DNA of 26,877 nucleotides from a virus. Its lineage: Duplodnaviria > Heunggongvirae > Uroviricota > Caudoviricetes. Within the stretch, counting starts at the first letter, position 1. The number at the start of each line of letters is the position of its first letter. Positions 12,001 to 18,000 of this stretch are shown in pieces. Position numbers: made by a program. The stretch is from IMG/VR virus record IMGVR_UViG_2718218104_000011, one strand, 5' to 3'.

Positions 12001-15000
12001 GTCATGGTTAATGCGGGAATACAGCGACGATACAGCGCATGATGTGTCAGGCTTGAATACCTTTATCCGTTAAAAGGGATATCAGTTAAGTTATCCCGTG
12101 TAGGGTATAAGCCATTATCAAAGCCACTCTGTAGGGAGTGGCTTTTGTAATGGCAATAAAAAAGCCCCGCGAATGCGAGGCTAAATCCAGGTATTTTTAA
12201 TGACTGGCTCTTATCTCAACGCAGCCCCTTACCGCGCGCCAGATGCTCAATATCAAGCATCAGCAATGAGATGTTTAACCATGATTCACTCCAGAAGTGA
12301 GCACCACCCTGTCTACAGAGCCAGATGTGAAGGATGATGAGTAAAATTATCGCTATCATCGAAGGCATTGCGTCCTGATGTATTCCTGAAGCGTTCTCAG
12401 TGCTGTTTGGTCGCGGATAATTCCGTCCCGGATACCGAGAACGTTTCGTCCAGCAACTGGAGAGAGTTCGACGGTGGCATCATTGCCCATGCCGGAGGCG
12501 CTGGAGGTTTCGTCTGAGGATGGCACAGGGCATTTTCCTTTGACGAACACCCGACCACCATTATCAAGCTTGCGCCGAAGAGCATCATTTTTAGCTTTCG
12601 CATCAGCTAACTCCTTCGTGTATTTAGCATCGAGTGCATCAGCAGCACGCTGGCGCTGCTGCATGTCAGTAATGGTGGCGGTCGCCTGCTTCAGCTCACT
12701 GACTTTTTTATCACGCTGTTCTTTATAGGCGATGGCGTTATCACGGTAATGATTAACCGCCCATGACTGGCAGACGATGATGCAGATAACCAGAGCGGAG
12801 ATAATCGCGGTTACTCTGCTCATTGTTGCCCCCACAAACAGACTTCACGCTCAATCTCGCGGCGAGTCATCAGCCCTTTCCATTGCTTACCGCCAGCGTA
12901 TGTCCAGCGCCGTAGCTGATCACATGCGCCTTTGATATCACCCTGGTTTATTTTGCGAAGAAGCGTCGATGTTCTGAAATTACCAGCGCCCACGTTGTAA
13001 ACGAACGAGTAAAGAGCGCCGCGCGTTGTTTCCGGTATATCGACTTTGATGTACGGGTTAATTTGTCTGGCGACCGTGGCAAGGTCTTTATTCAGGAGGG
13101 CTTTGCATTCTGCTTCGGTATACGTTTTACCGGGAATGATGTCTTTTCCGGTGTGTCCGTGACATACAGTCCATACGCCAACGATATCTTCGTATGGTAT
13201 GTAGCTGACACCTTCCAGGCCATCGTCACCACTCGGACCAGTGATGAGCACAGACGCTATGGCAGCAGCCCCACCACCAATAGCAGCAGCAACAGCCTTG
13301 CGTAATGATGGCGACATTATTCACCTCTCGCAGCCTTACGCTTATCTTCTTTAATCTTGAAATAAAGGTTTGTCAGATACGTCAGCAAGCCAAACACCAA
13401 GCTACCCAATACGCCTATTGCCACCCACTGGGATGGGGAGACTTTGTCCAGCAACTGCAGTAGCCAGTATCCCGTCCCCACCGCTGACGTGGTGTATGAC
13501 ACACCTGTTGTTATTTTTTCCATCTGGTACATACCCCGTCTCCCGTTATCCGGAAGCTGACAACAATAAAAAGCCACCAGTTAATTCCTGATGGCCCTGA
13601 TGCATAAACGTCATAATACCTGACTGTTATGATTGACAATAATGATAATGTTTATATAGAAAGGTTCCCGATGTGTGTTACATATCATTTCTCCACGGGG
13701 AATATCCCCACGCCAGCGCAGACTCTTTTACCCGTTCTCTTCTGCGCTGGCTCTTTTTTATTATGCTGCTGCATTTACCTCTGGCACCATGCTTTCTATC
13801 TCAACACAATACGTGGTACTTCTTGTAACCAATATCATAACGATTAATCGACATAGAATTTCTCCCGTGTACAGGAACAGAGTTAAAAAGCCGGAACCGG
13901 AATCAAATCACAGGATGACCATCTGCCAGTGGCAGGTCATAAAAAAAAGGCCGCGCCATGCGCAGCCAGAACTCACAAGGAAAATGATAGAAGGAAATAA
14001 CATTAGTGATGTACGCATGGCGCCTCCCGCTAAGTTCTGCAATGATCAAACAGAACTCGCTACGTGCCCTTAAAACTCGATCATTTAGCCCCTCCAAGGA
14101 GGATTCACCATGCGGTTGATTTTTTAATAAACAGTAAACAAAAAAGTCAAGAATTATTCATTCTGTTCTTTCATCATCGGCCACAGCAATACCACAATGC
14201 CGCAGACCAGAGCGCCATCAGTCAGTACCAACATTATCCTGCTGGTGAAATCCATCATCACCATCACTAAAAGCAGGATCACAACAGCAAGCAGACACAG
14301 TTTATAAAACAATGTTCAGGAAACGCATTCAGCATGCCTAAGGTTCTATTCCTACGAATAGCCAACTTGCAACTTAAAATATTATTTATGCAGCCAATTA
14401 AATTCTGGTCCTTACAATATCAACCTGAAGATTCTTATCTTGTGCTGATTGATAAATGACAAACCTTTTACTACCTGCATTGAAAGAAGTAGACAAAACC
14501 AGACAATTATCATAACGAGCAAGAACATAATACCAACCATCATTATAATTAATCATTTCATATTCTTTCTTAAACTGTGGTTTGTAATATCCTGTCAGAA
14601 ATGAAAAAAGCCAGAAATATGCCACAAAAGCAATCATCACAATCTCAAAAAAATGTTTTTTTATAAATGGCTTATCATAGAAGCATGATACCGATAAAAA
14701 TCGCCCATAAGATCTTATCGAAATTGTAACCGCCAGCGCAATCGCTGCTGACAGTAGCAAAAGAGGTACCTGAATCTTCTGTCTCAATATAGAAAACTCA
14801 ATAATTGCCGGCACAAACAATAATTCCACAGCAAAATAAAGGCGAAATACATTTAGCTCTTGCATAGAATGTTTTCTTTTCACTGCGAAAAAGAATACAA
14901 CACCAATACCCCAACCGATAAGAAATATAGCAATGACGATAACTGCAAAAAATAAACTTCTGGCAACATCATCAACACCTGCACCTACAATCCACCATGG

Positions 15001-18000
15001 GAAGCCGTAGTAAAAAGAAGTACCCCATCCATAGAAATAAGCACTCCCCCATCCAAGGCATCCCATGTAGGCAATAAAAAGTGAAGAACTCCTGAGCAGC
15101 GCACCATCCTTCATAACCACCCCAATACAAGATGATAACATTGGCTTACAACTCATAACAAAAGCAATTCAATGCCGTCAAGAGGTTACAGGCTAAAAAA
15201 ACTCTATTACATAGCAGCCAGCATGTTTACCGTACAAGTACAACTCAGGGCATAAAAAAACCCACTCGGCAGCGGGTTTATACATTTTTTACAACATACC
15301 AAATTTGCATGAAGTATATGGCTTTTAATCCAGTTTTGCAATATTTTGCTGTAAAAATGCTGCCTTTTGTTTTGAACGTGTTCTCGTCACAAGCAATAAA
15401 GCATCACTATCAAGCTGTAGAAAAATGTGCTTCATTGCAACCCAGCGTTCAGTAAATGTCTCGGACCAGTTTTTTGTTGTCACTCCCACCAATGATGCCA
15501 GTGTCTGGTATTCATAGGCCTCACGCCCTGCAAGTTCGCTCTTCACATCCTGTGCAGCCAGCCAGATTAACGTCTTCAGGCGATCCAGTGTCTTACCTGC
15601 AATTTTTCTGTTACTTAACAAATCTTTAAACTCGCTCCATGCCCATTGCGTTATGGTGACCTGATGCCCCCATCGAACGCTTTCGCTGTAACACCAAAGC
15701 AACCATGCTTTCTGATGTTCATCGAGAGACAAAACCGCGCGGCGCCATGAAGAGGTTGAGAATTCAACCGGGCTGACCAAAGCAATGGATGAACCTTTTG
15801 CGTACGACTGCTTACCGGAAGTCGGCGTATTATCCAGCGTAATCATCTTGCCAGTTACCACATCCAGAATGCGCGGCTTCTTTCGTTTGTATGTACCAGT
15901 ATCAAATTGTGCATGCTCCTGCCAGGCTTCGAGCTGGCCTTTCGTTGCTCCGTTCAAGTCAGCAGTAGCTGCCATAAGTTGCTCACGAACATACTGTAAA
16001 TATTGGGTATTCATGCAGTAAATCCTTTCTATATTTTGGCATAATTCTTCAACATTCGGTAATCGTTCAAAACCGAATCGGGGAAACGACATAAGCACAG
16101 GAGCCCCCAGCGACAGCGAAGGAGTTCTGATATATAAGACTCAGACATCATTCATTCCCCGGTTCTCCAATATCTGTTTCACTCATCATCCATAACTACC
16201 TGTAATTGCCCCCCCTTTTTTTGTAACAGTTCTTATATTGCTATATAGAATAGCCATTACTAATGCATTTAAATTTAATAAAATAAAATTATAAAAAACA
16301 TAAAACACCACGCAAACACACTTAATAAAAACACCGTTACATTAAAAGATAATAAAAACCGCAATAAAAAACGAATAAATCAATTGTCTCACGCAATTAT
16401 AAAACATCATATTGATTACGCACCTTGCATTACAAACTCATGTATGTAAAATACGCGCACCATTCAAAAAAAAGGAAGACAATAACATATGAAAAAAAGT
16501 GTCATCGCTGGCGTCTTTATTGCTCTGTCATTTACCACGTGTTCAGCTATCGCGAACAGCCTTGCATTATCATTAGCAAATGATGATGCAGGGAAGTTTC
16601 AACCAATACTTAATGATATTTATGGCAATAAACATGAAAACAGAGATGATTACTCACAAGGCTTATTTCTGGGATATAGCCACGATATCTCAGACTCGAG
16701 CCAATTATCTCTCCATATTGCGCAAGATATTTACTCTCCATCAGGCAGTAATAAAAGACACAACACAGCTGTAACTGGAGACAGAGCTTTTAGTGCATAC
16801 ACTCACACTGGTATTGAATGGAACTCCCTTGCGAATGACTGGATTCGCTATCGATTAGGTACTGACATAGGTGTTGTTGGCCCCGACGCAGGCGGTCAGA
16901 AAGTACAAAATAAAGCTCATGAGATTATTGGGGCAGAAAAATATCATGCATGGGATGATCAAATAGAGAATCGCTACGGTTATACTGTAAAAGGGATGCT
17001 ATCCATGACACCAAGTATGGATATTTTAGGTGCTAATGTTGGATTATACCCTGAAGTTTCTGCTGTTACTGGAAACTTATTTCAATATGTAGCATATGGC
17101 GCAACCATTGCCATTGGTAATGATAAAACCTTCAATTCGGATAATGGCTTTGGTCTGCTGGCTCCCCGTGGTTTAATGCATATGTCCGATACAAGCGGAT
17201 TCAAATACAAGATTTTTGCAGGTATGGAAAGACGAGATGTCAATCGCAACTATACTCTCGAAGGAAAAACAATACAGACGAAACAAACAACAGTATCGCT
17301 AAACAAAACTGTTGATGAATATCAAGTTGGCGCAACAATTGGGTATGCACCTGTAGCCTTCACACTAGCATTTAATAAAGTAACATCAGAATTCAAGACA
17401 GGGGATGACTATTCATTTATAAATGGAGCAATCACCTTCTTTTTTTAACTGAATTGAATTCAATCAAAATAACATAAGTCCAACAAAAACATAAAGTGCG
17501 AAATGAATGCCAGCTCCATTTATTTCGCACTATAAAAGATTAAAAGTTGCAATAAAATAATAAAATGACTCAGTTACGAAAACCAATAAACTGTGGCCAG
17601 TAGTGAGTCGCTCATCATCGGGCTTTTTGGCGAATGAAATTTAGCTACGCTTTCGAGTCTCATGCGCCTTCTCCCTGTACCTGAATCAATGTGAGGTTTC
17701 CGCAGAACACTGCGCCAGTATCGATATACATCTGGTTGGCAAATTTGAGTGGTTTCACTGCTGGCGTATGACCAAAGATGAACGTGTCCGCGCCTTTGAT
17801 TTCTTTCACGATCCCGTCTTGTGAGTTGCTGATTCGTTCGCGGTTCCAGATTACCTGCTGATGATCAACTGGCTTTCCAAACTCGTATTTATCACAAGGA
17901 TAATCGGCGTGGCAGATGACATATTTTTTTCCTTTACTCACCAGTTCGATGATTAACGGAAGTTCATCTGCTTTATGGGCAAGAGCTTTAGCCAGAATTT

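Follow-up and report, generated by a model that had tools for sequence, protein, structure and literature searches.

Among the cargo genes of lambdoid prophages, or morons, the classic examples are stx, bor, lom and HK97 gp15, and in Shiga toxin (Stx) phages stx occupies the slot that follows the gene for the late antiterminator Q and the pR'/tR' promoter-terminator pair. Prophage morons that encode inner-membrane proteins with demonstrated roles act mostly in superinfection exclusion (HK97 gp15, P22 SieA, T4 Imm). Here we describe the occupant of the same slot in a stretch of viral DNA of 26,877 nucleotides (nt), IMG/VR record IMGVR_UViG_2718218104_000011, hereafter called the window, which is prophage Sp3/CP-933K of Escherichia coli O157:H7, inserted beside ybhC. 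The gene, an open reading frame (ORF) at 14398..15156 on the minus strand, is equivalent to ECs_0816 of strain Sakai, where it is annotated 'membrane protein'. An earlier sequence-only reading of the window had placed an unrecognised membrane protein at this position, between a Q-like antiterminator and the holin, and the coordinates and the C-terminal sequence that it quoted both match the DNA. The gene is a genuine moron in the cargo slot right after the late-gene switch, and it is an already catalogued member of a named family of unknown function (PF27470 or TfpB, PHROG 1521), not an orphan. As in stx, bor, lom and HK97 gp15, its composition is foreign, it is dispensable, a promoter-like element and a terminator bracket it, and it sits in the Q-to-holin slot; it differs from them in having no sequence or fold kinship with any of them and in encoding a multi-pass inner-membrane protein, not a toxin or an outer-membrane protein. 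We propose, with a probability of roughly 0.3, that this protein acts alone, probably as an oligomer assembled through its first transmembrane helix (TM1), as an exclusion or immunity barrier at the inner membrane.

This ORF represents a genuine gene under purifying selection, not a chance frame, since the pairwise dN/dS against relatives across clades is 0.05-0.18, an unbroken frame is present in 154 of the 155 prophage loci retrieved from IMG/VR (drawn from two clades whose proteins are only about 57% identical to one another), and the calculated chance of a 252-codon open frame at a G+C fraction (GC) of 36% is ~1e-8 per start. Frameshifts in close relatives, which the sequence-only reading had put forward as counter-evidence, were sought, and the frames were found intact. 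Although the maximal ORF encodes 252 amino acids (aa), in line with the ~250 aa first estimated, the product is most likely a 238-aa protein initiated at M15 (14398..15114, minus strand). This methionine is the family-wide start, with its ATG at 15114 and a Shine-Dalgarno sequence, GGGGTGG, at 15123-15117, and the 238-aa form is favored because a stop codon falls within the upstream extension in a 94%-identical copy from Escherichia, and because that extension overlaps with a promoter-like box that is conserved. We rejected both annotated starts (M1 and M6) on these grounds and because the 14-codon extension has no Shine-Dalgarno sequence. At 0.36, the GC of the gene is below that of the window as a whole (0.47) and of the neighboring Q and lysis genes (about 0.45-0.52), which bears out the lower GC noticed earlier and is a mark of a moron, and the gene also lies below its flanks in 12 of 12 other host contexts tested. 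Its low GC could also belong to a decaying or silent passenger that has no current function, since an AT-rich gene is likely to be silenced by H-NS, and truncated alleles do exist, with PHROGs holding separate families that cover only the N-terminal or only the C-terminal part (14371, 17164 and 3985), and the protein went undetected in one proteome. Set against the low dN/dS, the near-universal integrity of the frame in prophages and an architecture that is kept down to 15-25% identity, such a passenger is highly improbable.

The position of the gene relative to the late-gene switch is defined by three upstream elements, all on the minus strand. Q is of the Q82 type (15325..16014, with a maximal ORF to 16098; PF06323, E 1.7e-91) and was also called by the PGAP annotation pipeline, which, like the phage 434 record, uses its 690-nt form. 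A consensus scan places a pR'-like late promoter, TTGCAA-17-TATACT, at 15313..15341, where it overlaps the Q stop codon, and it is followed by a tR'-like intrinsic terminator at 15250..15279 (AAACCCGCTGCCGAGTGGGTTT and then a T-run), the presumed target of Q antitermination. The pR'/tR' layout matches that of phage 434, in whose record a terminator is annotated at the equivalent spot. Because it lies directly 3' of this pair, ECs_0816 would be the first gene read by the Q-modified polymerase. The pair would itself yield a short terminated transcript of about 50-55 nt (about 15252-15306, minus strand); at the gathering threshold Rfam contains no family for it. In Stx phages, the equivalent pR' transcript is the Hfq-binding small RNA StxS. 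In a second enterobacterial clade, represented by 67 IMG/VR prophage loci, the gene is again found 230-250 nt 3' of Q, with Q matching PF06323 in 55 loci, PF03589 in 15 and DUF1133/PF06530 in 6, and in a Yersinia prophage the upstream Q is also of PF06530. As Q proteins of different Pfam families precede it, the gene is tied to the slot and not to one regulator.

The gene also travels with signals of its own. A conserved promoter-like box at 15152..15181 (minus strand) consists of TTGACG (15181-15176), an 18-nt spacer and an extended -10-like element, TGtTATGAG (15160-15152), and contains the ATG of the annotated M1. It is positioned 67-69 nt 5' of the start codon in 147 of the 155 prophage loci and 77 nt from it in one more (148/155), and it is kept in non-phage copies on a plasmid that encodes the heat-labile toxin (LT) of enterotoxigenic E. 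coli (ETEC), in an iro island and in E. albertii; on the ETEC plasmid, similarity to the window starts exactly at the TTGAC box. We infer that the box, despite its non-canonical -10 element, is the putative promoter of the cassette. At the other end, a strong intrinsic terminator (13939..13967, minus strand; 8-bp stem with 7 G-C pairs, T8) lies upstream of the holin gene, about 420 nt before its start, and the phage 434 record has one annotated at the corresponding site. The resulting cassette is self-contained, comprising the promoter-like box, tfpB, in this clade a DUF3927 gene and a small ORF, and the terminator. The statement that the Q-to-holin interval holds the membrane-protein ORF is thus correct, but the DUF3927 gene, the small ORF and the terminator are there too. 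The DUF3927/TciB-like gene (14154..14312, minus strand; PGAP; PHROG 1470, E 2.5e-17) encodes a small membrane protein of 52 aa. The small hydrophobic ORF (13908..14018, minus strand) encodes 36 aa from an ATG or 44 aa from an upstream TTG, its 3' part overlaps the terminator, and it is called a 'putative membrane protein' in phage 434 and is conserved downstream in E. albertii and Escherichia sp. A co-occurrence test showed that the DUF3927 gene accompanies tfpB only in the O157/434 clade, and DUF3927/TciB was rejected as an obligate partner on this ground. Since this candidate partner is clade-limited and the copies outside prophages are solitary, including the Pasteurellaceae and Conchiformibius (Neisseriaceae) copies that we examined, the TfpB protein appears to work alone.

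The closest relative of the locus is in phage 434. The window protein shares 100% identity with gp68 of that phage (CPT_434_68, 'putative membrane protein'), and also with Sakai ECs_0816. The two loci share a Q82-like Q, the terminator, gp68, TciB/DUF3927 and the small membrane ORF, followed by a pinholin lysis cassette, and they differ in that phage 434 has a NanS-p-type SASA esterase gene between the cassette and the holin that the O157 prophage does not carry. In the variant 434B, the whole Q-lysis region, including this gene, has been replaced by DLP12 DNA, and the phage still propagates (PMC9119081). As 434B is viable without it, the gene is dispensable for lytic growth. Taken with the post-Q position, the foreign composition, the box that moves with the gene and the terminator ahead of the holin, the viability of 434B fits the idea of a moron, and the moron slot had been rightly recognised. 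As the first Q-dependent late gene, tfpB might alternatively serve the phage late in infection, either by tuning the holin in the manner of an antiholin or by closing the inner membrane to superinfecting DNA during assembly. Its constant placement 230-250 nt after Q proteins of several families and ahead of holins is consistent with such a helper, as are its presence immediately ahead of the lysis region in phage 434, which is viable, and the layout of its product, a periplasmic domain anchored in the inner membrane, which resembles that of T4 RI-type sensors. We nonetheless consider this reading rather doubtful: 434B grows without the gene, the cassette has its own promoter-like box and is insulated from the holin by its terminator, the protein matches no holin, antiholin or spanin family in Pfam, NCBIfam or the annotated PHROGs, and homologues occur far from lysis genes on LT plasmids, on the Salmonella chromosome, in Pasteurellaceae and in Moraxella. 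Moreover, only 3 of 50,697 deposited phage genomes have the gene, namely phage 434 and two records of 2B8.

The sequence-only reading recognised no family for the protein, and this was overturned by its identity to 434 gp68 and ECs_0816, by a match to PHROG 1521 (E 2e-154), which is catalogued without a function, and by the Pfam tag PF27470 'TfpB', which is precomputed for all 103 homologues of our first search. The database entry P0001, which carries the tag, is 100% identical to the window protein over the 247 aa of P0001. The PF27470 assignment is the database's own precomputed annotation; our hmmscan of the window protein, made with a local Pfam copy that has no PF27470 model, returned no match. 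NCBIfam and a sequence profile search against the Protein Data Bank (PDB) also gave none, and a Pfam run on 27 family members produced scattered chance matches only. Hence the housekeeping or phage-lysis family that could have refuted the sequence-only reading was looked for in Pfam, NCBIfam, the annotated PHROGs and PDB profiles and was not found. An exhaustive hidden Markov model search of 1.84 billion representative proteins returned only 72 matches at E<=0.001. The named members that we looked up come from Enterobacteriaceae, Pasteurellaceae, Neisseriaceae and Moraxella, all of their hosts being animal-associated Proteobacteria, and full-length homologues with the same architecture extend down to about 15% identity (15-25% in the wide alignment). 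A search of IMG/VR with the Pasteurella member found no viral copies. In the searchable literature, searches for ECs0816 found nothing, those for 'TciA/TciB' found phage P1 gene names only, and those for 'tfpB' found other proteins only.

The tfpB gene was reportedly first described in Moraxella around 1990. By tblastn, the loci of M. bovis, M. equi and M. lacunata were confirmed as homologous (E 2e-19 to 7e-16). In M. bovis, two convergent pilin 3' halves flank an intact homologue of 261 aa, whereas in M. equi and M. lacunata the gene is flanked by a pilin fragment and a complete pilin gene and has a Piv-type recombinase of the IS110 family beside it. We take this pilin-inversion ORF to be the published tfpB (Fulks et al. 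1990; Rozsa & Marrs 1991). The window protein and M. bovis TfpB are homologous over nearly their full length (27% identity over residues 9-236, E 2e-19), sharing a conserved N-terminal helix and loop (AY.YGWG...YGYPWW), five hydrophobic helices and a C-terminal beta domain of the YYIL type. They differ in setting, a pilin inversion segment as opposed to a lambdoid late operon, and in length (261 aa and 238 aa), and family membership transfers no mechanism. The family name could be taken to mean a role related to type IV pili, in pilin processing or assembly or in Piv-mediated inversion. The gene does lie within the pilin inversion segment in all three Moraxella species, with the recombinase beside it in two, and many of the chromosomal hosts are piliated and naturally competent. 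However, no pilus gene is found near the copies examined in Enterobacteriaceae, Pasteurellaceae and Conchiformibius, and within Moraxella itself a frameshift splits the gene in M. lacunata (195 + 68 aa) and the M. equi copy is cut short (197 aa), so that tfpB appears to be expendable in some Moraxella. A pilus-related role is accordingly very improbable.

To describe the protein beyond its sequence, we modeled it with AlphaFold2 using a 44-sequence alignment (pLDDT 80, pTM 0.73), and an earlier model built from a shallower alignment agrees with the later one. The model contains five transmembrane (TM) helices at about residues 10-36, 47-79, 84-111, 116-137 and 155-181, followed by a five-stranded beta domain of about 55 aa at residues 184-235. 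The several hydrophobic segments noted at the outset are thus upheld by a predicted multi-pass architecture, but what had been described as a hydrophilic tail is modeled as this beta domain. Averaged over the 44 members, Lys+Arg residues number 2.7 and 3.1 in loops 2 and 4 and only 0.0 and 0.5 in loops 1 and 3; because the positive charges sit in loops 2 and 4, the positive-inside rule predicts an inner-membrane protein with a cytoplasmic N-terminus and a periplasmic SH3-like beta-barrel. Conservation peaks at two places. The first is TM1, which carries an invariant ladder of small residues, G21xxxA25xxxG29, and a nearly invariant S33, and the second is an aromatic loop on the periplasmic side, YYGFPWW. 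The wide-family alignments contain no invariant polar residue, which argues against an enzymatic role. The Foldseek comparison of the model with BFVD and the PDB found nothing at E<0.03, and the beta domain shows a weak likeness to SH3/Sm-like barrels, such as the C-terminal domain of HIV integrase, KorB-C and Hfq. Small-xxx-small ladders such as that of TM1 are typical of oligomers that form channels (glycine zippers), and the weak top Foldseek matches are to MscS-type channels, in which TM helices and a beta domain likewise occur together, so that TfpB could be a small oligomeric channel or transporter that alters the flux of ions or solutes across the inner membrane. Similarity of the model to the MscS-like fold was not obtained, and we regard a channel or transporter as quite unlikely.

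Outside prophages, the gene recurs beside virulence cargo. On five ETEC plasmid loci, a homologue that is 59% identical (5001-5714) and retains the TTGAC box diverges from eltAB (2987-4134, opposite strand), about 870 base pairs (bp) away, with the heat-stable toxin gene STb located a few kilobases (kb) off; this arrangement may be what is left of a lambdoid late region in which LT was formerly carried. In three loci of Salmonella arizonae and diarizonae, an SseJ-like effector gene adjoins the homologue, and in five E. coli iro islands of the extraintestinal pathogenic (ExPEC) type, iroBC and a bor remnant do so. The neighbor in Glaesserella is cdtABC, encoding cytolethal distending toxin (CDT), and that in Mesocricetibacter is an HlyB/HlyD exporter of the repeats-in-toxin (RTX) type. 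In Aggregatibacter (two copies per genome), Pasteurella, Rodentibacter, Actinobacillus and Conchiformibius, the neighbors are housekeeping genes only. At four Klebsiella electrica-type loci, a distant member (7001-7741) lies at the icd hotspot, next to icd and 1.2 kb from an AbiLi/AriA-like AAA ATPase (4676-5815; PADLOC E 6.5e-63) that has a 167-aa partner, and the locus has the appearance of a defence islet. An operon-like context was seen only for a very distant member on a metagenomic contig (7001-7789), where it lies amid three same-strand genes with gaps of <=15 nt that encode proteins of 250 aa, 415 aa (TPR-like) and 219 aa, all of unassigned function.

These neighborhoods raise the question of whether tfpB is an accessory of virulence or colonisation, an envelope factor for stress tolerance or surface remodeling that travels with toxin, effector and pilin cargo. 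Apart from eltAB and STb, the SseJ-like effector, cdtABC, the RTX-type exporter, iroBC with bor and the type IV pilin genes, this explanation can draw on nleB, nleC, nleH and lpxR, which are carried by the same prophage as ECs_0816, on the restriction of every named host to the animal-associated Proteobacteria, and on a probe that is probably for this gene (by an inferred mapping of its Z-number), the signal of which was 2.5-fold lower in an rpoS mutant. Nevertheless, it is unlikely to be correct, as direct contact with the host is beyond an inner-membrane protein, housekeeping genes are the only neighbors in about half of the contexts, and the adjacency may be no more than a consequence of shared AT-rich insertion hot spots and remnants of lambdoid late regions, as exemplified by bor beside the iro copy. 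A phenotype would distinguish a functional link to virulence cargo from a by-product of shared insertion sites. Part of the interest of the family, which has no known function or fold relative, lies in where it is found: the slot carries Shiga toxin in related phages, and in several pathogens relatives neighbor LT, CDT, RTX, SseJ, salmochelin and pilin loci.

We tentatively favor the exclusion or immunity barrier, and most characterised prophage inner-membrane morons are of that class. In the lysogen, transcription would start at the cassette's own putative promoter and end at the terminator before the holin, so that expression would leave the lysis genes untouched, and upon induction the Q-modified polymerase would read through from pR' to give high late expression. 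The protein would then act alone and non-enzymatically, with the glycine zipper of TM1 driving the formation of an oligomer at the periplasmic face of the inner membrane. By binding to a conserved envelope component, this oligomer would stop an incoming macromolecule, either the DNA of a superinfecting phage or a membrane-targeting toxin. The distant K. electrica-type member close to the defence ATPase counts in favor of this proposal, and TfpB resembles P22 SieA, T4 Imm and HK97 gp15 in being an inner-membrane protein that a single prophage gene supplies and that extends in part into the periplasm. It differs from those proteins in that it has no homology to them, is larger, has five TM helices and is conserved across far more bacterial families. 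Several observations weigh against the barrier. PADLOC reported 0 families for the window protein at E<=0.1, the Foldseek searches of BFVD and the PDB supplied no structural analogue, and the chromosomal contexts are mostly not defence islands. The strong conservation of TM1 reaches from Enterobacteriaceae to Moraxella and Neisseriaceae, whereas phage-specific exclusion proteins tend to have a narrow range and to evolve fast. The -10-like hexamer of the box does not have the canonical final T, which leaves the promoter putative, the protein was not detected in a 2011 O157 proteome, and a function has been experimentally assigned to no member of the family.

A broader and still more tentative proposal is that TfpB represents an unrecognised class of single-gene exclusion or immunity determinants of the inner membrane, with a new fold, that spread as promoter-bearing cassettes. 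If this were true, such cassettes would have spread among animal-associated Proteobacteria into lambdoid late operons and beside toxin, effector and pilin cargo, and a function would be given both to phage 434 gp68 and to the Moraxella gene, which has reportedly been unexplained since ~1990. An identical gene is available in the tractable phage 434, together with 434B as a natural variant without it, and defining a phenotype would provide an annotation for about 70 sequence clusters at once (representatives at 50% identity).

The lysis cassette downstream of the tfpB cassette is also on the minus strand and begins with the gene for a P21-type class II holin (13317..13532, or to 13577; PF04971), followed by those for a lysozyme (12820-13317; PF00959) and Rz (12356-12835; PF03245). 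A 132-aa ORF on the plus strand at 13675-14073 (Sakai ECs_0817, hypothetical in PGAP) is antisense to the small hydrophobic ORF and the strong terminator; it had no match in Pfam, PHROG, NCBIfam or PADLOC and is probably a spurious call.

Relative to Sakai Sp3, the window prophage has lost ~15.6 kb of portal, capsid and tail genes between the terminase gene and lom, and one copy of the insertion sequence IS629 stands in their place. This loss of head and tail genes is a strain-specific, IS629-associated deletion. The structural-module loss described in the sequence-only reading therefore applies to the head and tail genes, but the terminase, tail fibre, lom, Q and lysis cassette are kept. Retention of tfpB in a decayed prophage had also been taken as a sign of host benefit; this argument is weak, since Q, the lysis genes, the terminase and the tail fibre have been retained as well. 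Three 100% identical copies of IS629 are present (4012-5322, 7406-8716 and 20163-21472), one replacing the portal-to-tail segment, a second interrupting the exo region and a third between the tail fibre gene and nleB, and each contains an ALIL frameshift pseudoknot. Apart from these pseudoknots the window had no Rfam match, and it yielded no tRNAs. Positions 1-3742 of the minus strand, at the far end of the prophage, encode the type III effectors nleH, which is cut by the window edge, nleC and nleB2.

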